From a virus, in the IMG/VR virus record IMGVR_UViG_3300042259_000159: a stretch of DNA of 64,000 bases; one strand, 5' to 3'. Below, one piece after another: positions 1 to 64,000 of this stretch (within the stretch, counting starts at the first letter, position 1; every line of letters starts with the position of its first letter). The translations under genes and the position numbers were made by a program. The notes beneath the pieces were generated by a model, which saw only the letters and a program-made list of their open reading frames with translations, was not told the origin of the DNA and did not search any database.

Positions 1-407
1 GTATGGGTGTTAAGTATCAACTCGTTCGCGTGAACAACACCGTTGCGCTTTTTCTGGGCCAATCCGCCGTCGTCCATGTACCAAATGGCGATGTGGATTG
101 CAGACAGCCTGTTCAGGAGTTTCCGGTTGTAGATGTTTTTATAGCCATCTTTGTATAATATCCTTCTCAGTGTTTTACCCCATTTAGTTGTGCTTATATA
201 AGTTCGGTAGCTATCAAATCCGTTATTATTTTTGTAGGTGATGTCAGAGCACTTCACCCCTTCGGAACGTAGATACGCGATTTTCCACAGCAAGTAATCT
301 TTTTGAGCTGCGCAGTGCAGTATCGATCCGCTCCCAGTTTTACCTAAGTGTCCGTCGCCCAAGATGACACTTAGTAATGCAGTTCGTGAACTTCTGTTAA
401 ACTTCAT
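1..407 (-). CDS. LAGLIDADG homing endonuclease (3' end cut by window edge)
   Basis: Minus-strand ORF with ATG at 405-407 and RBS (rc of aagcctcc 411-418). Hand translation MKFNRSSRTALLSVILGDGHLGK...IAIWYMDDGGL shows two LAGLIDADG-type motifs. Not in the ORF track because it runs off the window. Confidence 0.7.
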   Translation of the reverse strand, partial: MKFNRSSRTALLSVILGDGHLGKTGSGSILHCAAQKDYLLWKIAYLRSEGVKCSDITYKNNNGFDSYRTYISTTKWGKTLRRILYKDGYKNIYNRKLLNRLSAIHIAIWYMDDGGLAQKKRNGVVHANELILNTH

Positions 408-463
408 GTTAAGCCTCCAAGCACTGTTGTGCTGTTTAAGTCGACATTTAGTCGTTGCACCTT

Positions 464-955
464 CTACCATAAGTAGTTACGGGAGATGTCCTTATAAGAT
501 CTCCGACTACGGATGTCGTCGTAGATATGCTTAGGTATCCCCATAAGGTCTCGAATTTCCTTTGCAGAGTGTCTGCCATCGGCAATCATCTGGCAAATTC
601 TATGCACCTTGTCATCAGGGAGTGTGCTATGTGGACGCTTGCACAACTTGTTCTTGAATGCGTGCTTCCGATTTTCAGATGGCGTCACCCACTCAAGATT
701 GTTCTTGTGGTTATCAATCTTAATCCCATTCTTATGATTGACAACTTTGCCTTCTTCGTAGCCTTGCACATATGTGTAAGCCACAAGTTTATGCACAAAG
801 ATACGAAGAGTCTTTCCTTCAGAGGAGAGGGTTACTCGCTTGTAACCTGTTCTATTAAGGTCAGTGCGCAACACTCTTCCTGTTTCTGAATTTAAGACAA
901 CACCCTCTTCATTAACGAGGTACTTTTCAAAACCTTTTATTGCGACTGGTCTCAC
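464..955 (-). CDS. HNH homing endonuclease
   Basis: Track ORF 163 aa. N-terminal FEKYLVNEEGVV (NUMOD4-like) and HNH core VNHKNGIKIDNHKNNLEWVTPSEN. Confidence 0.8.
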   Translation of the reverse strand: MRPVAIKGFEKYLVNEEGVVLNSETGRVLRTDLNRTGYKRVTLSSEGKTLRIFVHKLVAYTYVQGYEEGKVVNHKNGIKIDNHKNNLEWVTPSENRKHAFKNKLCKRPHSTLPDDKVHRICQMIADGRHSAKEIRDLMGIPKHIYDDIRSRRSYKDISRNYLW

Positions 956-1023
956 ACCTAATCTCCTTATAGTAGCTTGGCTCAGGATTGTCTCTGAGAG
1001 AGTTCCCCTGAATTCACACAGTT

Positions 1024-2010
1024 TTACGCGGGCATCAATTTACCCGCCCCGAAGTAGAAGGTCTCTCCTAGTCTTCGTCCTCTTGTGGCTTTTGTCAGGC
1101 CAAGCCAAGGCCACGGCCTTCCGTATTCGGGCTTAGTTCTTGCTTTTTCTTTTAAGGTAGAACCCTTGACGATACGGGTGTTCTTTGGGACTACAGTCTT
1201 CCACTTGGTGGCTTGCAGACACTCCGCTACCTTCCCTTCGAGGAGACAGTCATTAACATCCTTACACGGAAGCTCAGCAACATGCCCTCCGGGGAAGATA
1301 CGAACAAACTCTTCTGCTGCTTTCTGACCGGGTTCGTCCATGTCAGGGACGTACACTACCTTCTCAAACAGCTGACGAATCTTGTTTGCATGTTGGAGAA
1401 CAGCCTTCTGCACACTTCCTGCTCCTGAAGGAAGGCTCACAACAGCAGGAATGAGATGTTTGTATTGGGTGTTTGCTACGCTATCCCTGAGCATTTGATA
1501 CAAAGACATTGCATCAATCTCACCTTCGGTGATGTACAGAGTCTTTGCTCCAGCTGTGATAGCTTGTTTCCAACCAAAGAACGAAGCCCCTTTCAAAGAG
1601 CCTATAGCCCACATCCTCTTATCTTTCAGGATTCGTGCTTTATAAGCAGTGAGCTGCCCTCCTTCATCCGTGTAAGGAAAGAATACGATGTCAGGAGTAG
1701 AGCCATCCATAGGTGAGACACCTACTTTGACATTGAAATGCTCAAGGGTTTCTTTCCTCAGCTTTCTTGAAGGAAGAGGATGAGAGAGAAGACTAATTAT
1801 GTGTTTAATTTCTTCGTCTATCTCTTCCTTCGTCTTTTTAGCCACTACAGGAGTGTAGCCTTCAGGTTTGTCCTTATAGGGGTCAGGGACATATTTTCCA
1901 CAAGAGAAACAGTAGCCATCATAGCTGCCATCTTCTTGTAAAAACACTTGTAAACCTGAAGCTGTTCCACAAGAGTGAGGCAATTTTTCTACGCATACTC
2001 CTCGTTTCAT
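1024..2010 (-). CDS. DNA primase (zinc-binding domain + TOPRIM)
   Basis: Track ORF 328 aa. Cys-rich N-terminus (CGTASG...CFSCGKY) and TOPRIM acidic motifs (EGEIDAMS, DMDEPGQKAA). Confidence 0.75.
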   Translation of the reverse strand: MKRGVCVEKLPHSCGTASGLQVFLQEDGSYDGYCFSCGKYVPDPYKDKPEGYTPVVAKKTKEEIDEEIKHIISLLSHPLPSRKLRKETLEHFNVKVGVSPMDGSTPDIVFFPYTDEGGQLTAYKARILKDKRMWAIGSLKGASFFGWKQAITAGAKTLYITEGEIDAMSLYQMLRDSVANTQYKHLIPAVVSLPSGAGSVQKAVLQHANKIRQLFEKVVYVPDMDEPGQKAAEEFVRIFPGGHVAELPCKDVNDCLLEGKVAECLQATKWKTVVPKNTRIVKGSTLKEKARTKPEYGRPWPWLGLTKATRGRRLGETFYFGAGKLMPA

Positions 2011-2093
2011 ACCTCCTCCATGTTAGAAGTTAAAGGGGGAATTAACTTCCCCCTATTTATATATACGTCACAGACGAGAGAATGTGACAATTT

Positions 2094-2879
2094 TTATTGC
2101 ATATAATTCCGAATTGCTCTAGCGTATGCTTCAAGAGCAGTGCCCATAATGCCCGGAGCAGTGTTCACTTCCAAGACGTAAGCCATATTCGCCCGCTGGT
2201 TGTAGATAACATCCACTGCTCCGAAGTCAAGCCCAAGAGCTTTAACAGCGAGGAGAGCCTGATTCTGAACTTGGAAGGGGCAGGTGTCATTTACGTCAGC
2301 TCCGTCTTTGTCAGTCCGAACAAAGATGAATCCCTTCTCATGGTTGCGGATACGCCAATCCACATTCTTAATATTCATTTCGGGATTGAGGGCTTTCCTC
2401 GTGATGTCGATGATTCTCCCGTTAAAGACATGGACACGATACTCCTGCTTTTTCTTGATGTAAGCAGTGTAGAGAGGAGCCTCAGGAACTTTGCCATGAG
2501 GCTCCACCAATTCAATTCCCTTTCCGCCATACCCAACGAGAGTGTGACGAACGACTACACAACCTCCGTTTTCCGCCCACAACTGAGCTCTGTCTCGGTC
2601 GATAGTGAAGGCGGGAAAATTGACATACTCTTCATCTTCAAACACTTCAAAAGTACGAAGCTTGTTGGAAGCAATTGCCACTGCCTCAAAGTCGTTAAGC
2701 ACACGACAATCCTCAGGGATGTGCTTAGGACGGGTAGAGCAGCCCCAGTTGAGCACCATTTTATCGGGGGTCCATTTCCACTTGCTGCGTTCAGCTCGAA
2801 TGCGGAGAACACCCAATTCAGTAGCAAGGGCTTTAGCGGACGTAGACTCCATTTTGTAAGGCAGAATAAACAGTTTCAT
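2094..2879 (-). CDS. ATP-grasp family ligase
   Basis: Track ORF 261 aa. Glycine-rich loop GYGGKGIE and C-terminal VLEVNTAPG typical of the ATP-grasp fold. First gene of a tightly packed minus-strand cluster. Confidence 0.75.
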   Translation of the reverse strand: MKLFILPYKMESTSAKALATELGVLRIRAERSKWKWTPDKMVLNWGCSTRPKHIPEDCRVLNDFEAVAIASNKLRTFEVFEDEEYVNFPAFTIDRDRAQLWAENGGCVVVRHTLVGYGGKGIELVEPHGKVPEAPLYTAYIKKKQEYRVHVFNGRIIDITRKALNPEMNIKNVDWRIRNHEKGFIFVRTDKDGADVNDTCPFQVQNQALLAVKALGLDFGAVDVIYNQRANMAYVLEVNTAPGIMGTALEAYARAIRNYMQ

Positions 2880-2889
2880 TTTTTGTCTC

Positions 2890-3714
2890 CTAGATGTCTA
2901 TTAAAGGTTCGTCGATAAACACTGCGTTCATAAAGTCAATGCCATTGACAATAGAGTAGCAGCGATAAAGCTGTCTTTTGAACGAAGCGTTAAAGTCTTC
3001 GTAGGCAAGAGCGAAGGGAAACACTTCCCTCGTAAAGGCTATTGCGTCTTTAGACGCTTCTTTCAGGAGGGCATGAGGGTCTTCAAAAGTACAAGCTTTC
3101 TCCCGAAGAGAGAGGAGAAGGCGGAGCCACTGCTCAATCACTGCGATGTCCACAGTCCCACGCATAGCTCTGAACTCAATCGAACCATACTGAGGCGTAG
3201 CCTTGATGTTCATGCTTGCATAACGAATGTCGTTGTCATCCAAGGCATTAAAGTTCATGCTTTTTGCAAGACCCTCCAGTTTGAAGATGAGTCCTTCCGC
3301 ATCAAAGGAAGAGAGGCAGAAGAGATTGCCTTTACGCGTTTCTCCACAAAACTCCAGAAGAGCGTCTTCATAAAGCAAGTAGAGTATAACAAAGTTGAAC
3401 CACTGGCCCACTGTCAATTTTTGAACGTTAATATGAACATGAACAGATGTTCTGTCCGAGAGGACAACATCCGCTCTCCTGAGATGTTCTCTCAGCATAC
3501 GGAGCCGACGACAAGCCCCCGGGAAGCTGATGGGTTGAGGAAGGACGTATTCCTTCGGGTCATGCCCCCCAATAGGACGAAGAGAAGGTTCGATATGTAC
3601 CTGCCACCCATTCACCTGACGGGGGAGGTCACGACCTTCCACCTCTATTTCAATGCCAATGTCCCCATTCTTAGGGACCAACCCCAGCATATCGGCAATA
3701 GTTATTTCAGCCAT
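2890..3714 (-). CDS. putative amidoligase (glutamine-synthetase-like COOH-NH2 ligase)
   Basis: Track ORF 274 aa. N-terminal GIEIEVEG motif resembles the E-x-E nucleotide/metal site of GS-like amidoligases. Assignment from motif recall only. Confidence 0.45.
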   Translation of the reverse strand: MAEITIADMLGLVPKNGDIGIEIEVEGRDLPRQVNGWQVHIEPSLRPIGGHDPKEYVLPQPISFPGACRRLRMLREHLRRADVVLSDRTSVHVHINVQKLTVGQWFNFVILYLLYEDALLEFCGETRKGNLFCLSSFDAEGLIFKLEGLAKSMNFNALDDNDIRYASMNIKATPQYGSIEFRAMRGTVDIAVIEQWLRLLLSLREKACTFEDPHALLKEASKDAIAFTREVFPFALAYEDFNASFKRQLYRCYSIVNGIDFMNAVFIDEPLIDI

Positions 3715-4268
3715 TCTTCTCCCACCACCTCTTTGATGTAGTTAGCATAGAAGTTGTCTGCCACAATAAACTTTTCTTCATCAATATCTGCCACAGGCAT
3801 AGTCCGATAGAAAAGACTCCGCTCCCCAATAGCGAATTCCCTATGGAAGGCTATGCTTCTTCTTCGAGAACGGTCTTTCTCAAAGCATTCTTCCACCGTA
3901 GGGTAGTCGGCTATAATGGTCTTTGCCAAGTCTCTTACATTGGGTTGAGCACTTATCCCTACATAGTTGGAACGAAGGTCCAGACGGTCAAGAACCAATC
4001 CTTGCTTCTGCTTCCGATGGGGCCAGCGAGCCACATACATTGAGACCCCAACTAGGGTGTTCACATAGCCCAAAGGAGGAGAGGCAAAGTCCCATCCCTC
4101 ATCCCTAATGTGGATGCGAGCATCTTCTCCTTCTTCATCAAGAATGTCATACCCATTAGCAAATCCATCTTCCACATGCCGGATGTAGAAGGGGCTGCCA
4201 TTATACCTCACTACCGTTCCTGCCAGACGCATATTAGCGTCATGGTCGTTATTAAATTTCAACAGCAT
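3702..4268 (-). CDS. hypothetical protein within amidoligase cluster
   Basis: Track ORF 188 aa; overlaps neighbours by a few codons, consistent with operon packing. Confidence 0.5.
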   Translation of the reverse strand: MLLKFNNDHDANMRLAGTVVRYNGSPFYIRHVEDGFANGYDILDEEGEDARIHIRDEGWDFASPPLGYVNTLVGVSMYVARWPHRKQKQGLVLDRLDLRSNYVGISAQPNVRDLAKTIIADYPTVEECFEKDRSRRRSIAFHREFAIGERSLFYRTMPVADIDEEKFIVADNFYANYIKEVVGEEWLK

Positions 4269-5043
4269 GGGGCACTCCCAGATTGTACTTCTTAATAAGA
4301 GCGACTGCCGAATCTACATCCGAAGTGTTGATGATGTTGGTGATGTCTCCCTCTTCCTCAGCCAAGTCTCTTCCTGCAAGCAAGTCAACAACAGCTTGTC
4401 GGGAAGCGGAGAACACCCAACGCATCAGACGCTCTTCTTTAAGCCAAGCATTGGACAGAGTGCGATATTCCATGCCGTAAGGCTTAACACGAAAAGCCCC
4501 TGCCTTCCCGTAGAGTTCTCTCCTTTTGGTGTCCTTGTCGAACAGAAGAGAAGGCAATCCAAGGTAGAAATCCAGCTGCCGTGCAAGCTGACACGAAGCA
4601 AGGAAAGCTCCGAAGTCGTTCACATCATGCTCCATATAGCCGATATGAACATGCCCAGCAGCAGTGCGGAAGTCTCGATTACCGTCAGGAGAAGGGTTGA
4701 TGTCCTGCGTCCACCCATTGTAGTCGGGGTCACACCCCAATTCAAGAGCGGCAGGAGGCTGAGTAGCCATATACTCCTTGCCAAAATGAGCCACAGGCTC
4801 AATGACAATTTCCTCCTTCACCATACGACGAAGCTGAGCGAATACATGCTCAATGTTGCTGACGAAGGTGTTTTCATCAGCTGCCGGCTCAATGTTAAAC
4901 TCAAGAGCCATACCATCCACCTGTACAGCCCCCTTCTCAACAGGGAAAGGGGCTTCCTTAGTCCCGGGAATGAGGCCGTAGCCGGAGATGAACTTCCCAT
5001 TGTCCTTCACAAACAGTTCGGGGTCGGTGCCAATGTATATCAT
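4252..5043 (-). CDS. hypothetical protein, possible second COOH-NH2 ligase-like enzyme
   Basis: Track ORF 263 aa (MIYIGTDPELFV...AAGHVHIGY). Sits between the amidoligase-like gene and the amidotransferases. Family assignment tentative. Confidence 0.4.
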   Translation of the reverse strand: MIYIGTDPELFVKDNGKFISGYGLIPGTKEAPFPVEKGAVQVDGMALEFNIEPAADENTFVSNIEHVFAQLRRMVKEEIVIEPVAHFGKEYMATQPPAALELGCDPDYNGWTQDINPSPDGNRDFRTAAGHVHIGYMEHDVNDFGAFLASCQLARQLDFYLGLPSLLFDKDTKRRELYGKAGAFRVKPYGMEYRTLSNAWLKEERLMRWVFSASRQAVVDLLAGRDLAEEEGDITNIINTSDVDSAVALIKKYNLGVPHAVEI

Positions 5044-5054
5044 GTTATTCCTCC

Positions 5055-6266
5055 TTAAAAGGGTATATTAGAGTCATACAGGGAGACAAAGTCTTTGTCT
5101 TTCAGGCATTCCAAACAAACAGAATCGTATTCCGAGATGATTGCGATTTTCTCATTCCTCTCATAGAACTTCCCGCACCAGTCGCAGGAGTGGTAAGGGT
5201 GATGCGGGTAGCTTATCTTATACTCAATCTTAGGGGCTTCTTCCTCCTTCTGATTGATGGGAATGATGGAACCCACAGTGAAATACGTCTTCTTGTCGAG
5301 CGTTTGCCCGATGAACAATATCTTTGCCCGAAGGGGGACGCCCACAGGAACATCCGAGTTGCCATATGCGAAGTGACGAGCTTCAATATCCTCTCCAATC
5401 ACCTCACCGAAGTAGTCGACATTCTTCCCATATGTGCTTTCCCTTTTGTGGAACTTCACAGTGGCATACTCATCTTCTCGATAGGTGCGAAGATTCCCCA
5501 CTGCTTTTCGTGTTGCCCTCTCCCAATTATTCCACCCTTGGTGGATGTACGTTGTCTTGACAGGAGGCGTGTACGAGCAAGGAGTGAGCTTCTTGGTAGT
5601 GAGTTTAAGGCCGTTGCTCAAGTTCCACGAGTAGAGAACATTTTCTTTCACTTCGCAAGCTTTCATGCAGGGTATTTTGTTTCTCCAACATGCCGCATGA
5701 ATGAAGAAAGGCTCAGAAGCCCAGAACACCACCTTCTTTTCTTTGTCAAGCATATAGTAGAGAGGCCGCTTATCGTTCCGCAGCATGTTGAGCGTGTCTT
5801 CGTTTTCGTCATACCAGACAAGAGCAGCTGCCCCGCAAAGATTCTGCCAAGTGTCTTCCACACCATGTATGGACATATGGTGGTAGATGTTGGAAGAATC
5901 AACATCGAATTTCTTGTAATCCGCCAGAAGATGTTGGGCTGTAAGTGTTCCGTTATGCACTCCTGTAATGTGCCCATGCTGAAACGGATGAGCGTTTTCC
6001 TCGATAATAGTTCCTTTCGTTGCTGCTCTATTATGCCCTATAAGGCATTTCAACACTTGTGAAAAGATAGGCTGTACTTTACCAATGGTGACAAAGTCAT
6101 AGGCTGCCAGAAGAGATTTTTCGATAGTGACTTTCTTCGTATGGCGATTTACTCCAGCGAGACCCACGGAATCAACTCCGCGTATTTCGTCAAAGATGAG
6201 CATATCCTTGACTGCCTTCTCCTCTTTCGTTGTAATCAGTCCAGCTGCTCCAATAATACCACACAT
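5055..6266 (-). CDS. class II (Ntn-type) glutamine amidotransferase domain protein
   Basis: Track ORF 403 aa. Starts MCGIIG, i.e. Cys immediately after Met as in Ntn amidotransferases. Confidence 0.7.
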   Translation of the reverse strand: MCGIIGAAGLITTKEEKAVKDMLIFDEIRGVDSVGLAGVNRHTKKVTIEKSLLAAYDFVTIGKVQPIFSQVLKCLIGHNRAATKGTIIEENAHPFQHGHITGVHNGTLTAQHLLADYKKFDVDSSNIYHHMSIHGVEDTWQNLCGAAALVWYDENEDTLNMLRNDKRPLYYMLDKEKKVVFWASEPFFIHAACWRNKIPCMKACEVKENVLYSWNLSNGLKLTTKKLTPCSYTPPVKTTYIHQGWNNWERATRKAVGNLRTYREDEYATVKFHKRESTYGKNVDYFGEVIGEDIEARHFAYGNSDVPVGVPLRAKILFIGQTLDKKTYFTVGSIIPINQKEEEAPKIEYKISYPHHPYHSCDWCGKFYERNEKIAIISEYDSVCLECLKDKDFVSLYDSNIPF

Positions 6267-55122: not shown

Positions 55123-55206
55123 TGGTAGGAGAAGAGAGATTCGAACTCTCAAGGAATAATCCGTCGAGGCTTAAACTCGATGTGTTTACCATTTCACCAT
55201 TCTCCC
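55123..55206 (-). tRNA. tRNA-Leu (anticodon TAA), type II, CCA encoded
   Basis: Hand-folded cloverleaf: acceptor GGGAGAA/TTCTCCT, anticodon stem TCGAG/CTCGA with loop TTTAAGC, long variable arm, T-arm GAGAG-TTCGAAT-CTCTC. Confidence 0.7.
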
Positions 55207-55245
55207 GTATTTTTTATCTACCATTCCGCCATTCCCGCATTTATT

Positions 55246-55323
55246 TGGTACCCACTGTGAGATTCGAACCCACACTAATCAGTTTCTAAGACTGATGCCT
55301 CTGCCAAGTTGGGCTATACCAGT
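55246..55323 (-). tRNA. aberrant tRNA-like gene (anticodon TAG, type I architecture, poorly paired acceptor stem)
   Basis: Good D-, anticodon (TCAGT-CTTAGAA-ACTGA) and T-arms, but 5' acceptor ACTGGTA mispairs with the adjacent 3' strand AGTGGGT. Confidence 0.4.
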
Positions 55324-55581
55324 ATTATGCTTATTATTTTATTTTGAAAGGCCATATGTATACACATATATATATATACATATATATATGTATAGAGCAA
55401 CCAAAATGGTTAAATAAAAAGGTGTTTTGTGGAGACACCAAACTCCTCCAGTTTTAGTGATCTGGAAACAATAAGCGGCGCAGGTGCTCTTTAAAACACG
55501 TGCTACCAAGCGTATAAATTGTCTAGGGGATTTCACCAAACACATTATGTTATTGGAGGGATCTTTCCCTAGACTCAGTAA

Positions 55582-55654
55582 AGCTCCTGACAGGACTTGA
55601 ACCCGCAACCGGCTGATTACAAATCAGCTGCTCTGCCAGTTGAGCTACAGGAGC
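55582..55654 (-). tRNA. tRNA-Thr (anticodon TGT), no encoded CCA
   Basis: Acceptor GCTCCTG/CAGGAGC, D-arm GCTC...GAGC, anticodon loop TTTGTAA, T-loop TTCAAGT. Confidence 0.7.
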
Positions 55655-55658
55655 AGAA

Positions 55659-55730
55659 CAGAGGGAGAAGGATTCGAACCTTCGAATGACGGGACCAAAA
55701 CCCGTTGCCTTACCGCTTGGCTACCCCTCT
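55659..55730 (-). tRNA. tRNA-Gln (anticodon TTG), no encoded CCA
   Basis: Acceptor AGAGGGG/TCCCTCT, anticodon stem ACGGG/CCCGT with loop TTTTGGT, T-arm GAAGG-TTCGAAT-CCTTC. Confidence 0.7.
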
Positions 55731-55738
55731 AAATTTTT

Positions 55739-55815
55739 TGGCTCCGGCGGCAGGATTTGAACCTACATTCGCAATGGTTAACAGCCATTTGCCTTACCAA
55801 TTCGGCGACACCGGA
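55739..55815 (-). tRNA. tRNA-Asn (anticodon GTT), CCA encoded
   Basis: Acceptor TCCGGTG/CGCCGGA, anticodon stem AATGG/CCATT with loop CTGTTAA, T-arm GTAGG-TTCAAAT-CCTGC. Confidence 0.7.
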
Positions 55816-55860
55816 ATGAACTTTTTATTTGTTATCAGCATTGTTTTGCTTTATTTTAAA

Positions 55861-55939
55861 TGGTCTCGGTGATTAGATTTGAACTAATGATTATTCCTGC
55901 TCCCAAAGCAGGTGCCATACCAAGCTAGGCGACACCGAG
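55861..55939 (-). tRNA. tRNA-Pro (anticodon TGG), CCA encoded
   Basis: Acceptor CTCGGTG/CACCGAG, anticodon stem CCTGC/GCAGG with loop TTTGGGA, T-arm ATTAG-TTCAAAT-CTAAT. Confidence 0.65.
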
Positions 55940-56416
55940 ATCAGGTGTGGTACCAAACTCCACTATGGGCAGAGGTTATAAGAAGGTCCGTACATGATAT
56001 AGACAGATATTCTTCCATAACAGCGGTACGGACGCTGTCTCATTTTTATATCTTTCAGTGTGCTATTACGCCAAAGGGAAATTAAGCCTTACCAGTTACG
56101 GGGTGCCCTTTTACTATCCACAAAGAATTTCAAATCGCGTGCATTCTAAGTATCGGAAAATTCTACAACCACTTAAAGTACACCTCGTTTAAGAGATAGC
56201 GACCTGTGCTTCGTCCCACTCTTTAAAGGATGGCTGCCTCAAAGCCCACCTCCTGAAAAATGCATGAAGGATTATCCCTCCTTCGCTAAATACAACCTAT
56301 CAATTTTAAGGGTTCTTGTCAAGAACATTTTAAGGTTTTTGAAATTTTTGTTGAACGCTGATTTGCTACGCGGGTACAGCGTTCGAAACCTCGATAGCAT
56401 CCTTGCCGTTGGCAAA

Positions 56417-56506
56417 GCTGTCAGGAGCCGCAGGAGGAGAATTGAACTCCTCTGGCATCAACACGCAGTCACCACAACTACATCTACCGTTACGGGTATG
56501 GCTCCC
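56417..56506 (-). other. tRNA-like element (T-arm and acceptor helix, non-canonical D/anticodon region)
   Basis: Minus-sense GGAGCCA...GAGGAG-TTCAATT-CTCCTC...CGGCTCC; lies just outside the right-end hairpin of the tnpB element. Confidence 0.3.
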
Positions 56507-56574
56507 CATCCTAGTCACCTGTTGATACCTTATAGGTTCAGCCCTACCAAGGGCACTGCGGCTTAAGTGGGTTG

Positions 56575-56860
56575 GTTGGTGCAGATTGTGAACGTACCCC
56601 CGCCTATAGAGGCGGAAGCTTCCTGCTTCAGCGAGAACAGCACCAGTAACTCCGAAGAGTTGTGGCGAATTACACTCTCTCCACAGGCGTAAATTCCCGT
56701 GCGACCCACGGTACTTTATGAGTTACGCTAGGCAGATATTCGCCCAGCTTCTTCTCTAATATTTATTGCAGCGTTCTTGTCACGGTTATGATGACTGCCA
56801 CACTTAAGGCAATCCCATTCCCGCACAGACAAGTCTTTGGTATCCTTGTTCTGGTAGCCA
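56575..56860 (-). ncRNA. candidate TnpB guide RNA (omega/reRNA) region at the element right end
   Basis: By analogy with IS200/IS605 TnpB systems the guide RNA overlaps the tnpB 3' end and runs to the right-end hairpin (56600-56615). Not folded or aligned. Confidence 0.3.
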
Positions 56861-57965
56861 CAGACATGGCATAGCTGACTGCTTGGATACCATTTGTCTA
56901 TCTTGATAAGTTGCTTACCCTGCCATGCAAGTTTGTATTTCAGCATACTTGTGAACATGCTCCAGCCGTTGTCGGATATGGATTTACCAAAGTTGAACTT
57001 GCCACCCTTCTTTCGCTTCGCCATGTCCTTTACGCTAATGTCCTCTATGCCAATCACATCATAGCGGTCTGCAAGATAACGAGCTTTCTTATGCAGGAAG
57101 TCGCGGCGTTGATTAGCAATTTTCTCATGGAGTACAGCCAAACGTAGTCTTTGTTTATTCCTATTACGGCTCCCTTTTTGTCTCTTGGAGAGTTTTCTTT
57201 GTGCCTTGATCAATCTCTTTTCGGCTTCCCGTAAGAAATTTGGATAATCGGCGTTGTCCTCATCGGAAGCAACATACATCCCGTGCATAGCAAAATCCAA
57301 TCCAAGAAAATTCTTCGGTATGATGGGAAGTATTTGGTTTTCATACTCCACCAAAATACTAATATAGTATTTTCCTGACGGTGTTTTACTTATGGTTACA
57401 GTCTTTATGGTGCTATTCTCCATCAATGGACGATGCAGACACAGCTTTACCCAACCTATTTTCGGCAGCTTGACTTTGTTTCCCTCGATTCTTACAGAGC
57501 CATGTTGGTTGTTCGTAGAATATGAAGCATGACCCGCTTTCTTCGACTTGAAGCGTGGCTTGCAAAAATGCTTCCTATTGCTCCAAAAGTTGTTATACGC
57601 CTTGTTCAGGTTTATTTGGGCATTGGCGAGAGCAAGGCTGTCAACCTCTTTCAGCCAAGGAAACTCTTTCTTGTACTGTGCAGGTGTGTTGTTCAGCCTC
57701 TCTCCTGTTTCCTTATAGTGATCAAGACGATCTCCAAGCATCTTGTTATAGATGAATCTGGCACTGCCGAAAGTCTTGGCAAACATAATCTTCTGTTCAA
57801 TTGTCGGGTAGAGTCTATATCGGTATGCCTTATTCACTATAATCACCTGCCTTGATTTTCTATGTATTTACGAATTGTCTCAAACGGAGCAATTATCTGG
57901 CTCAACTACTTACGTAAATTCGCTAGACACACCTTCATCCCCCACCTTAGAGGTGGAGGGCTTCT
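56590..57965 (-). mobile_element. IS200/IS605-family insertion element carrying tnpB only
   Basis: tnpB flanked by similar imperfect palindromes: cccgcctatagaggcgg (56600-56615) and ccaccttagaggtgg (57942-57956). No Y1 tnpA. Inserted between tandem tRNA-Leu genes and the rest of the tRNA array. Confidence 0.65.
56728..57846 (-). CDS. tnpB: TnpB (RuvC-like RNA-guided endonuclease, IS605 OrfB family)
   Basis: Track ORF 372 aa; N-terminal YRYRLYPT, RuvC-like region, C-terminal zinc finger CHVCGY...CLKCG. Confidence 0.85.
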   Translation of the reverse strand: MIIVNKAYRYRLYPTIEQKIMFAKTFGSARFIYNKMLGDRLDHYKETGERLNNTPAQYKKEFPWLKEVDSLALANAQINLNKAYNNFWSNRKHFCKPRFKSKKAGHASYSTNNQHGSVRIEGNKVKLPKIGWVKLCLHRPLMENSTIKTVTISKTPSGKYYISILVEYENQILPIIPKNFLGLDFAMHGMYVASDEDNADYPNFLREAEKRLIKAQRKLSKRQKGSRNRNKQRLRLAVLHEKIANQRRDFLHKKARYLADRYDVIGIEDISVKDMAKRKKGGKFNFGKSISDNGWSMFTSMLKYKLAWQGKQLIKIDKWYPSSQLCHVCGYQNKDTKDLSVREWDCLKCGSHHNRDKNAAINIREEAGRISA

Positions 57966-57987
57966 GGCGGGTTAGGTTAAATCCCTT

Positions 57988-58012
57988 GTGTCTACTAATT
58001 CCACCAATCGGG
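57988..58012 (-). pseudogene. truncated tRNA 5' fragment (acceptor + D-arm) adjacent to the tnpB element left end
   Basis: Minus-sense GCCCGATTGGTGGAATTAGTAGACAC duplicates the 5' 26 nt of tRNA-Leu(TAA) at 58023-58109, including the aaagatttt spacer, but has no anticodon or T-arm. Confidence 0.45.
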
Positions 58013-58022
58013 CTAAAATCTT

Positions 58023-58109
58023 TGGTGCCCAATGCAGGACTCGAACCTGCACGCCATTTCAGGCAGGAGGGCTTAAACCTCGTGTGTCTACCAATTCCAC
58101 CAATCGGGC
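58023..58109 (-). tRNA. tRNA-Leu (anticodon TAA), type II, CCA encoded
   Basis: Acceptor GCCCGAT/ATTGGGC, anticodon loop TTTAAGC, long variable arm, T-arm GCAGG-TTCGAGT-CCTGC. Confidence 0.65.
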
Positions 58110-58118
58110 TAAAATCTT

Positions 58119-58202
58119 TGGTGCCTCAGACAGGATTCGAACCTGCACGGATCTCTCCACTTGGTCCTAAGCCAAGCGTGTCTGCCATTCCACCACTGAG
58201 GC
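58119..58202 (-). tRNA. tRNA-Leu (anticodon TAG), type II, CCA encoded
   Basis: Acceptor GCCTCAG/CTGAGGC, anticodon stem CTTGG/CCAAG with loop CTTAGGA, long variable arm, T-arm GCAGG-TTCGAAT-CCTGT. Confidence 0.7.
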
Positions 58203-62540: not shown

Positions 62541-62759
62541 ACTCGCACCTGCATCAAGAAAGCAAGAAATGATGCTGGGTGCTGATGCCCAAATGACGGT
62601 AATTGGTAGATAACTGCCCTGTACACAGGAAACTGTGTATGTGTATCTCATTAAAACGGGGAACCCTAAGTGTACACGCATAAGGGAATCCCGTGACTAC
62701 GCAAGCCGAAAAAGGAGTAGGCATGAAAAATTTAGGATTTATGGGTTTTGATAAGTGTG

Positions 62760-63037
62760 CGGATATGTTCTGACCTAGAGAAGGGTTTTTCATGCTCTTC
62801 TACTGTAAGGAGGAATAAGGTTGGAACAAGCACGGTACATAGGATCTATAGAAGAAAAACGCATACTTCCATATCTAAGAATTTTTCTTGGGAGTAGTTG
62901 TAACGACTAGTTCATAAGAACGTAAGACACAAGTAGTCCTTAAGTGCAAGGACAAGGTGTTTGAAACATGAGACACTCTAACAAGTAATGTTGAGGGTGA
63001 AGAGATAGTCTGAACTGTATAGAAATATACAGCAGGA
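62760..63037 (+). mobile_element. group I intron core (candidate), copy 1
   Basis: R-like element gtaacgactagttc (62899-62914), S-like element gaagagatagtctgaac (about 62999-63016), P9-like hairpin ctgtatagaaatatacag (63015-63032). Boundaries not determined. Confidence 0.5.
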
Positions 63038-63350
63038 GAACATTTTAATGTTTTTCCGGCAGATGCCTTACGAACATCTGTGAACATTTTGGGTGCCGCA
63101 GGTTCGGGAAAGTCATACATAATGAATATGATACCTTTGAGGTATGTCGATTGCCCCAACTTTAGGGGGATTGTCTTCCGAAGGGAAACGACACAGCTTA
63201 CAGGTGAAGGGGGGATGTGGGATACAGCAACGGAGATATACTCTGAGCTGCCTAAAAATATCAGGCCCAAAATATTGAAACATAACCTGAGAATGATTTT
63301 TCCGAATGGGGCAAAAATTAAGTTTTCACACATGGAAAATGATAATGATT
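63038..63350 (+). CDS. terL: terminase large subunit, exon with Walker A
   Basis: Frame opens after the intron core; Walker A GAAGSGKSY. Exon ends are approximate because the reading frame stays open into the flanking intron sequence. Confidence 0.5.
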
Positions 63351-63585
63351 TCAGGAAACATCAAGGGTTAATTAGTAGCCCCTTGTGTTGGTGACAGCGC
63401 AAGCAAACTAACCTAATTCGGTGGAAGCCCAAACATGTAGGATGTGGGTGATACCGAGCAAGCCACGGCGTGTGTAACGACTAGTTCTTAGGAACGTAGG
63501 CCCAAGCGGGTCGAAACGGTTAGCATCTTATTAAGATGAAGATATAGTCTACTCTGCATGGAAACATGCAGCGGACACTTTATGT
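63350..63585 (+). mobile_element. group I intron core (candidate), copy 2
   Basis: R-like gtaacgactagttc (63474-63487), S-like gaagatatagtctac (about 63537-63551), P9-like hairpin ctgcatggaaacatgcag (63553-63570). Confidence 0.5.
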
Positions 63586-63594
63586 GTCGGGCAG

Positions 63595-63860
63595 ATGTTA
63601 GCGCCATCTGTTGAATATTATGTACAATATACCCTGATATGCTTTGATGAGGCAACACATTTCACTTTCCAACAAGTTGAATACTTAATGTCACGTATGA
63701 GAAGTAAAAGTAAGTATGCTTCTCGTATGGTTCTGTCGTGGATTACGCGACATGTATGGCGAAAGCTGTACTGGCAACTGTGTGAACTCAGGGAAACCTT
63801 AGCTGCTGCAATTGGGCAGAGGAAGAAGGCAATCCTGAGCGAAGCCTTCCCACCGGGAAG
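63595..63860 (+). CDS. terL: terminase large subunit, exon with Walker B
   Basis: Walker B ICFDEATHF shortly after the start of track ORF 63595-63888; 3' boundary approximate. Confidence 0.5.
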
Positions 63861-64000
63861 GAACGTGCAACGACCATCGAAAGCGTAACACCTGTTACAG
63901 TGAGTAGAGTACACCACACATGTGTGGTGGAAGCGCACAGCCCCTAACATGTAACGATGAGGGTGAAGATATGGTCTGAACCTACAGAAATGTAGAAAAA
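63860..64000 (+). mobile_element. group I intron core (candidate), copy 3, running off the window
   Basis: R-like gtgcaacgaccatcga (63864-63879), S-like gaagatatggtctgaac (63965-63981), P9-like hairpin ctacagaaatgtag (63982-63995). Confidence 0.45.

Follow-up and report, generated by a model that had tools for sequence, protein, structure and literature searches.

We analyzed a 64,000-nucleotide (nt) stretch of viral DNA, the IMG/VR record IMGVR_UViG_3300042259_000159 (hereafter, the window). At its beginning, the minus strand carries three open reading frames (ORFs) that encode a primase, an HNH homing endonuclease and a LAGLIDADG homing endonuclease, the last of them leaving the window at position 1 (Table 1). 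A preliminary description of this DNA had placed the two endonuclease genes and a group I core element downstream of the primase gene, and had suggested that together they may be one group I intron, interrupting a gene whose remainder lies outside the window. The single intron with two endonuclease ORFs is borne out, as there is a single core and the exons join in frame. Its placement has to be revised: the intron is located within the primase gene, not downstream of it, the primase ORF being exon 1 of a gene interrupted at the Walker A motif of the helicase. Most probably, a primase-helicase gene of the T7 gp4 type is split at this motif by one 1367-nt group I intron, in which an HNH gene and a separately acquired LAGLIDADG cassette can be recognized from sequence.

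The 328-amino acid (aa) primase ORF matches structures of the T7 gp4 primase-helicase (E about 1e-18). A megablast search of window positions 1-2100 against GenBank phages gave zero matches, and the homologues were found at the protein level. By tblastn against the same phages, these are Zobellviridae genes of 530-560 aa with an annotation as fused DNA primase/helicase, such as Salinivibrio phage CW02 gp19 and genes of several oyster-metagenome phages. Exon 1 is 47-51% identical to such genes, and the homology of the ORF extends to residue 326 of 328. At the homologous position CW02 gp19 reads ...GETYYIAAGEKMGKSEIVNAL..., and the window ORF reads ...GETFYFGAG followed by KLMPA and a stop codon; these last five codons and the stop codon are intron sequence. 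Comparison of the two thus places the break inside the helicase Walker A motif. Judged by these alignments, the "primase gene" corresponds to exon 1 of a gene for a T7-gp4-like primase-helicase that is interrupted at the ATP-binding motif.

The remainder of the gene was recovered from other records. An exact-protein look-up of the HNH ORF yielded two Logan contigs (L001 and L002), identical to the window in the overlap, and L002 reaches 169 nt past the LAGLIDADG stop codon. Scanning IMG/VR with the last 36 nt of L002 identified contig IMGVR_UViG_3300042267_000152 (91.6 kilobases), whose locus is designated L020. Because window positions 1-3000 are an exact substring of L020, it was used for the sequence beyond window position 1. 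This extension, proposed as a check in the preliminary description, revealed a split host gene and the 3' elements of the intron. Exon 2 is open without interruption to its stop codon. Joining of the exons at window position 1042 produces a 554-aa protein that is gap-free against CW02 gp19, T5S1, and T2S1 (tblastn, MAFFT). The spliced junction reads GAG|VKMGKSE, T5S1 has the identical GAGVKMGKSE, and the Walker A motif is restored. In tblastn comparison of the spliced product with related loci, the break falls at residues 323|324, without gap or overlap. At the nucleotide level, the predicted spliced-RNA junction is ...GGGGCGGGU|GUCAAAAUGG... (also given as ...TTCGGGGCGGGT|GTCAAAATGGGAAAATC...); the intron-less helicase allele has the sequence ...TTCGGGGCGGGTGTCAAAATGGG..., with the exon junction GGGGCGGGT|GTCAAAATGG. 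The host frame is intact after intron removal, and the spliced product combines, in one polypeptide, Toprim and SF4 helicase domains with Walker A, as in bifunctional primase-helicases of the T7 gp4 type. For annotation this means that primase and helicase are one gene at a locus that gene callers break into four ORFs.

Two candidates were rejected in the course of this reconstruction. Contig L029 resembled an intron-less allele, as tblastn covered residues 317-523 contiguously. It begins in the 3' part of the intron, and the extra residues are a chance in-frame match. An intein at this locus is ruled out by in-frame stop codons and by the ribozyme core in the insert. Contigs often end within introns: L001 stops in P9, L029 starts in P7.2, and many LAGLIDADG homologues reside on contigs of about 1 kilobase. 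Repeated intron cores may break metagenome assemblies at such points.

The intron is of a subgroup-IA-like group I type. The end of exon 1 and the internal guide sequence form P1, with a U.G pair, read from the sequence, at the 5' splice site (1042|1041). In P10, the guide segment UUGAU (1038-1034) faces the first exon-2 bases GUCAA, and the intron 3' end, ...CAUG, has the terminal G. Both P1 and P10 are kept, with one-sided changes, in two introns at the same site in other phages (L031 and L033, see below). A stop codon in the exon 1 reading frame lies ahead of the ribozyme core; such early in-frame stops are known in phage and Bacillus group I introns (Tourasse and Kolstø, PMC2504315).

The HNH gene is looped out of P6a, the stem of which contains part of the HNH ribosome-binding site as well as the HNH stop codon. 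The columns of the P6 3' strand, J6/7, and the P7 5' strand that follow (449..461) are invariant in the family alignment. This segment was described before as the R-like element GGTGCAACGACTAAAT. The element is real, and its position is 446-461 (plus-strand coordinates), about 11 nt off the 435-450 reported initially. The claimed match to the R elements of terminase introns also holds: allowing up to one mismatch, GTGCAACGACTA is present in three copies in the window, one at 449-460 of the minus strand and the others in the two terminase introns called by Rfam. The chance expectation is 0.20, and 0/100 shuffles reach three occurrences.

At the Rfam gathering score, nothing was found at this locus in the window, L020, L031, or L033. 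The suggested RF00028 search was productive in part: permissive cmscan gave partial matches of 20.6 bits (P3-P6, 903-1066) and 18.2 bits (P7'-P9, downstream of the LAGLIDADG stop codon). We attribute the missed gathering score to the splitting of the core by the inserted ORF segments (492 and 644 nt). Introns of the same core family that are free of ORFs reach 73-91 bits with RF00028. The intron has every core element only once. Without the HNH loop and the cassette, the 235-nt core has a folding energy of -80.3 kcal/mol (z = -4.3), and the minimum free energy fold of the stripped core returns P3, P4, P5, most of P6, P6a, P7.1, P7.2, P8, P9, and P9.1.

A metagenome scan with the P4-P6 core sequence yielded 14 loci; their introns belong to the same core family and interrupt various genes. 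We tested a P3-P9 structure, including the P3/P7 pseudoknot, on an alignment of 11 ORF-stripped cores (A2); it took the place of an earlier MAFFT alignment of the stripped core with two terminase introns (A1), which was out of register and was not used. In A2, 97.0% of cells pair vs 82.7% in shuffles, none of the 500 shuffles reaching any measure, and both-side (compensatory) changes are observed in 22 of the 45 pairs. Sliding the partners by 1-3 columns lowers pairing to 28-45%. The compensatory changes are located in P7.1, P7.2, P8, P9, and P3; P5 and six P7 pairs are invariant, which is compatible with the structure and uninformative. The conserved P3-P9 core is backed by this covariation.

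These data bear on the simplest alternative, namely, that there is no intron and that separate primase and helicase genes flank a spacer with two free-standing homing endonuclease genes. Such genes are common between conserved phage genes (PMC3984707), and the silence of Rfam at its gathering score would agree with this arrangement. It is almost certainly not the case here, as the primase ORF ends in the middle of Walker A, the homologous position of the helicase part offers it no separate start, the reading frame continues, to the residue, from one half into the other, a complete and covarying group I core surrounds the ORFs, and P1 and P10 fit the junction.

Table 1. Coordinates of the primase-helicase locus and of other group I introns in the window (window positions, unless L020 is named)
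Feature	Position	Strand	Details
Primase ORF	1024-2010	-	328 aa; Pfam Toprim_2, E=5e-9
Exon 1, primase-helicase	1042..2010	-	323 codons: Zn-finger, Toprim primase domain, start of SF4 helicase domain; ends with ...GETFYFGAG
Group I intron, first 1041 of 1367 nt	1..1041	-	last 326 nt beyond window position 1
P1 hairpin	1028..1047	-	exon end GCGGGU (1047-1042) : internal guide GCCCGC (1033-1028)
UAA stop codon	1024..1026	-	in frame with exon 1; intron nt 16-18, ahead of the ribozyme core
5' core	979..1021	-	P3 5' strand CUGUGUG (1021-1015), P4 UCAGGG (1011-1006), P5, P4' UCCUGA (987-982), P6 5' strand GCC (981-979); from cmscan alignment, minimum free energy fold, and pair counts
P6a 5' strand	966..975	-	CUACUAUAAG; 10-base-pair helix with 473-464; overlaps HNH Shine-Dalgarno AAGGAG (968-963)
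HNH ORF	464-955	-	163 aa, GTG start; looped out of P6a; I-HmuI-like
P6a 3' strand	473-464	-	CUUAUGGUAG; last 10 nt of HNH ORF
P6 3' strand	461-459	-	GGU; part of the "R-like element"
J6/7	458-456	-	GCA; part of the "R-like element"
P7 5' strand	455-449	-	ACGACUA; part of the "R-like element"
LAGLIDADG cassette, first 448 of 644 nt	1..448	-	limits set by the empty site of L091; same ends in other introns
LAGLIDADG ORF, codons 1-135 of 199	1-407	-	ATG at 407; leaves the window at its start
Exon 1 in L020	4001-4969
Intron in L020	4970-6336		1367 nt
Exon 2 in L020	6337-7032
Terminase intron	63359-63571	+	Rfam, 76 bits
Terminase intron	63728-63997	+	Rfam, 77.5 bits
Apparent third terminase intron	about 62600-63053	+	GTAACGACTAG near 62905, GAAGAGATAGTCTGAACTGTATAGAAATATACAG near 63000-63035

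Both endonuclease genes of the preliminary description are present. The HNH ORF contains the HNH_3 domain (Pfam, E=1.2e-8, 34.9 bits at a cutoff of 24.8); the N-terminal DNA-binding module of the NUMOD4 type, which we count as present, scores 21.2 bits, slightly under its cutoff of 23.4. The protein is similar to I-HmuI (PDB 1u3e, E=7.9e-16) and to phrog_59 (E=7e-35). The LAGLIDADG ORF, recovered at its full 199 aa from the identical contigs L001, L002, and L020, belongs to LAGLIDADG_2 (PF03161, E=5.7e-12) and phrog_11023, and is weakly similar to structures of the I-SceI type (6x1j, E=0.0018). Two motifs in a single chain, ILGDGHL (residues 15-21) and YMDDGG (residues 110-115), are observed.

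Introns at the same site allow us to separate the two genes. The L031 and L033 phages from IMG/VR, with about 55% (exon 1) and about 69% (exon 2) aa identity to the window phage, have a 718-nt intron exactly at residues 323|324, with an orthologous HNH gene (77-81% identity) and no LAGLIDADG gene. A third relative, L091 (Ga0194137_10006897), has exons 97-98% identical to those of the window (173/179 nt in the tail of exon 1, 520/530 nt in exon 2). Its intron matches in 587/593 nt on the 5' side, all six differences being in the HNH ORF, and in 130/130 nt on the 3' side. Thus, L091 lacks a 644-nt cassette and otherwise has the same intron (99-100% identical). The site in L091 reads ...GTGCAACGACTA|TTCCGGAAGG..., where the window phage has 644 extra nt, AATGTCGAC...AAGTCTTGACTA; the DNA of the empty-site intron is AAGGTGCAACGACTATTCCGGAAGGAAGTAGGGGC. 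Stripped of the HNH loop and the cassette, the window and L091 cores are identical (201/201 nt). In all same-site relatives examined (L031, L033, L091), the orthologous HNH ORF occupies the same place in P6a and the cassette is absent. Because every one of them has the HNH gene, it is taken as the original homing enzyme of the intron.

The two ORFs, accordingly, are not equivalent passengers, a second correction to the preliminary description: the LAGLIDADG gene is a separate 644-nt cassette after P7. The cassette lies between the P7 5' strand and P7.1 and consists of a 41-nt leader (448-408), the 600-nt ORF, and 3 nt. The leader contains a hairpin, AGCAC-AACA-GUGCU (433-420), and a Shine-Dalgarno sequence, GGAGG (418-414), and its 3' end can pair with the last ORF codons in the stem GGCUUAAC/GUUAAGUC. 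A 5-nt direct repeat, GACTA, bounds the cassette. The first copy is in the P7 5' strand (window 449-455, minus strand), and the second one, overlapping the TGA stop codon, forms the last 5 nt of the cassette (L020 6202-6206). The repeat is likewise found in the cassette introns L103, L104, L106, L116, L118, and L119. It may be a relic of insertion or a means of precise excision, and either copy could form P7.

The presence of two endonuclease genes could also reflect a twintron or a pair of neighboring introns, with the LAGLIDADG gene as part of a second intron located inside the HNH intron or next to it. A comparable intervening sequence with HNH (phrog_59) and LAGLIDADG (phrog_11023) genes has been read as sequential colonization by two introns (PMC11878797). 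For the window this is very improbable: the 644-nt insert is made up of leader, ORF, and 3 nt, with no P3-P9 elements found in it, and its removal leaves exactly the single-intron core of L091, with one copy per core element.

From three HNH-only lineages vs one with both genes, the LAGLIDADG cassette of the single intron is taken, by parsimony, to be a later gain. Several points weigh against our reconstruction. Exon 2, like the 3' third of the intron, is outside the window and comes from other records, which are identical in sequence to the window where they overlap it. The native sequence falls under the RF00028 gathering threshold (50 bits), and the invariant P7 pairs say nothing for or against the P3/P7 pseudoknot. 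The sequences establish the anatomy, the in-frame exon junction, the covariation of the core, and the cassette polymorphism; self-splicing, endonuclease activity, the order in which the two genes were acquired, and the DNA that the LAGLIDADG protein would target are inferred. The direction of the polymorphism comes from parsimony over only four lineages, and a deletion between the flanking GACTA repeats would also yield the exact L091 sequence.

The last point leads to the reverse scenario, in which the intron with two endonucleases is older, and HNH-only introns such as that of L091 resulted when the cassette was lost precisely, for instance, by such a 5-nt repeat deletion. The homing cycle is expected to include loss of the homing endonuclease gene (PMC3984707), and introns with both HNH and LAGLIDADG genes recur elsewhere (L118 and L119). 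Set against this are the three HNH-only lineages (L031, L033, L091), spanning 55-98% exon identity, vs the single one with the cassette; the different P7.1 of L031 and L033, which abuts ACGACUA directly and retains no trace of cassette ends; and the nearest LAGLIDADG relative (85%), which resides in a different core and a different gene. We assign loss a minor but real chance.

In the preferred reconstruction, the intron would act as follows. In pre-mRNA transcribed from the minus strand, GCGGGU of exon 1 and the guide GCCCGC would form P1, and an exogenous G would attack at the U.G site. The guide bases and the start of exon 2 would then form P10, and the exons would be joined after the terminal G, giving the 554-aa ...GAG|VKMGKSE... 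protein. On unspliced RNA, ribosomes would be halted by the in-frame UAA at intron nt 16-18. The HNH protein, a relative of I-HmuI, presumably attacks helicase alleles that have no intron and thereby drives the homing of the intron as a whole. The LAGLIDADG cassette would have been gained later, by an intron already holding the HNH gene.

The activity of the HNH enzyme is not assured in view of its differences from the L091 orthologue (L091 266-757): four nonsynonymous and one synonymous codon changes, all in the C-terminal third. In the exons flanking the intron, one nonsynonymous and 14 synonymous changes are observed. Small as these numbers are, this pattern suggests that constraint on the enzyme has relaxed or that its specificity is shifting. 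The L091 helicase also contains a second group I intron (1433-2222), located in exon 2 at SRAMMR|SCNYMIG and absent from the window phage. It has its own HNH ORF, 39% identical to the first one. The codons flanking this second site differ synonymously (CGT|AGT TGT vs AGA AGC TGC), which fits either co-conversion or target-site immunity.

LAGLIDADG maturases exist in fungal mitochondrial group I introns. The cassette protein might similarly act mainly as an RNA maturase that aids folding of the interrupted core, rather than as a DNA endonuclease, since a 644-nt insertion beside P7 might require folding help and intron-encoded proteins may stabilize intron RNA (PMC3984707). The catalytic acidic residues, in contrast, are intact: in 117 homologues, D18 and D112 are conserved at 100% and D113 at 97% (GDG and MDDGG, 97-100%). 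The presence/absence polymorphism and the use of one site in many introns also fit a mobile DNA element better, so that a primary maturase function seems quite unlikely.

The 199-aa LAGLIDADG protein has 575 homologues, nearly all of about 199 aa. Twelve of them, with 45-85% identity, were examined in their contexts, and all 12 reside in group I introns, directly 3' of the P7 5' strand AACGACYA, in at least six annotated host-gene types. Together with the window intron, the cassette occupies the identical core position in 13/13 contexts examined. The host genes encode tape-measure protein (L103), terminase (L104/105, L106/107, L110), DNA polymerase B (L109), the lysin of a Priestia prophage (L111), and the major capsid protein (L119), or belong to a crAss-like phage (L115); other cassette introns are in genes without annotation (L112/113, L116/117, L118). 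A scan of IMG/VR for the cassette junction found only two contigs, the other contexts being obtained by protein look-ups from Logan, ENA, and JGI contigs. Cassettes with at least 52% identity share a similar leader hairpin and Shine-Dalgarno sequence, the hairpin showing compensatory changes in some of them (for example, AACAC/GUGUU in L109). Since L118 and L119 also contain an HNH ORF, in the P6 region and only 34-36% identical to that of the window, the layout with two endonucleases recurs.

The relationships of the LAGLIDADG proteins do not follow those of the cores. The intron that encodes the nearest LAGLIDADG relative, P0002 (85%), lies in a different gene and also differs in its P4 (UUCGGUG), and the nearest relatives of the window core (L091, L031, and L033) have no cassette. 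Over 36 pairs, the correlation between LAGLIDADG identity and core identity is weak and not significant (Spearman rho 0.24, p=0.15). This result hints at incongruence without settling the question.

At somewhat less than an even chance, the cassette may be an autonomous mobile element that targets the P7|P7.1 core DNA, roughly GCAACGACTA|TYCCG...GGRAGTA, which would make it parasitic on introns and not on host genes. This reading draws on the constant core position (13/13 contexts), the exact cassette boundaries in the comparison with L091, the differing relationships of LAGLIDADG proteins and cores, and the HNH genes of L118 and L119, which are unrelated to that of the window. An intron-core DNA target is plausible because the exon contexts are unrelated and the intron flanks are conserved; the P7|P7.1 junction sequence is conserved across a family of phage group I introns. 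The candidate DNA site is the empty site of L091, GGTGCAACGACTA|TTCCGGAAGGAAG. Alternatively, intron and ORF could have been inherited together for a long time, with occasional recombination between introns. When the exon junction (GGGGCGGGT|GTCAAAATGG) and the site of cassette insertion (GGTGCAACGACTA|TTCCGG) were compared by eye, no similarity of the kind described by Loizos et al. was seen. If the cassette does target intron DNA, it could enter intron-occupied alleles, where the resident HNH enzyme has no targets left, and could move between introns of unrelated genes, introns with two endonucleases being a regular outcome. Such behavior would bear on the assembly of composite mobile introns and on the persistence of selfish elements once an intron is fixed in a population.

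Two loci of the cassette family contain further elements. In the L106/L107 terminase, the exon after the LAGLIDADG intron (L106, about 1064-1130) reads ...KILVVGGAAG and then CLPGDTEFLSENGW..., with a called product of 789 aa; this looks like an intein in the Walker A motif beside the intron. In L109, a gene similar to IS605 OrfB/TnpB (4247-5491) is directly downstream of the intron-split DNA polymerase B gene.

Other introns are present in the window itself. The gene of the terminase large subunit (62600-64000, plus strand) contains at least three group I introns, two of them called by Rfam, and the LAGLIDADG cassette is absent from all three. The exon text after the apparent third intron, NILGAAGSGKSY, is the terminase Walker A motif. 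The primase-helicase intron is missed by Rfam, probably because its two ORFs break up the core. A module adjoining the primase-helicase gene (2094-6266, minus strand) comprises genes for ATP-grasp (2094-2879), Amidoligase_2 (2890-3714), a COOH-NH2 ligase (4252-5043), and a glutamine amidotransferase (5055-6266); in CW02-like Zobellviridae phages, an ATP-grasp gene is likewise upstream of the primase-helicase gene. Rfam also detects a cluster of eight tRNA genes (55126-58202, minus strand).

Group I introns with HNH or LAGLIDADG genes are well known in replication and packaging genes of phages (PMC3984707; PMC11878797). In the open-access literature, we found neither an intron described at the Walker A site of a gp4-type primase-helicase nor any account that links a LAGLIDADG cassette with the P7|P7.1 junction. 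The td and nrdB introns of T4 belong to subgroup IA2 and have an endonuclease ORF in the P6a loop. The window intron resembles them in its location in a DNA-metabolism gene, the ORF extending out of P6a, the P7.1/P7.2 hairpins, and the early in-frame stop. It differs in the host gene and site (primase-helicase, Walker A), in the type of endonuclease (HNH, not GIY-YIG), and in the second endonuclease cassette. Another parallel is the DNA polymerase intron of the Bacillus phage SPO1, which also encodes an HNH endonuclease (I-HmuI, 1u3e) in a phage replication gene. Here, only residues 6-98 align, and the host gene, host phylum, and intron site differ, so that nicking cannot be assumed for the window enzyme.

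The closest published precedent for two different endonuclease coding sequences in one phage intervening sequence is the DNA polymerase gene of the Bacillus phage phiNIT1, where phrog_59 HNH and phrog_11023 LAGLIDADG genes are also combined (PMC11878797). This intervening sequence self-splices in vitro and in vivo, and the authors interpret it as two introns (PMC11878797). The order is reversed compared with the window, the LAGLIDADG ORF being between P4 and P4' and the HNH ORF after P7, and between the two LAGLIDADG proteins the identity is only 32%, over 58% of the query. In our scan of phiNIT1 (L114, NC_021856 100462-102232), there is one partial Rfam match to P4-P7 (3005-3153) and one to P7'-P9 (3826-3855). 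On this sequence evidence, the phiNIT1 intervening sequence may consist of one core that holds both ORFs, and not of two introns.

Effects on competing phages are exemplified by the Pseudomonas phage PhiPA3, whose intron-encoded HNH enzyme acts against PhiKZ (cited in PMC11878797). There, as here, an intron-borne HNH gene resides in an essential phage gene; the PhiPA3 enzyme can damage the intron-less allele of a co-infecting relative, which is a plausible selective role for the window HNH gene as well. The PhiPA3 system differs in the gene (RNA polymerase), the phage group, and the single endonuclease in the intron. By analogy, a role of the window intron in competition between co-infecting phages is possible.

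Finally, PMC3984707 summarizes how an endonuclease gene enters, as an element of its own, an intron that is already there (Loizos et al., 1994), and also covers collaborative homing (Bonocora and Shub, 2009; Zeng et al., 2009). L091 and the window phage resemble the states before and after such an invasion. In comparison with the cases outlined in that summary, the invaded intron here already had a homing endonuclease, and the cassette reuses one core site in many unrelated introns. The pair provides an unusually clean natural before and after of an endonuclease gene entering, or leaving, an already mobile intron.

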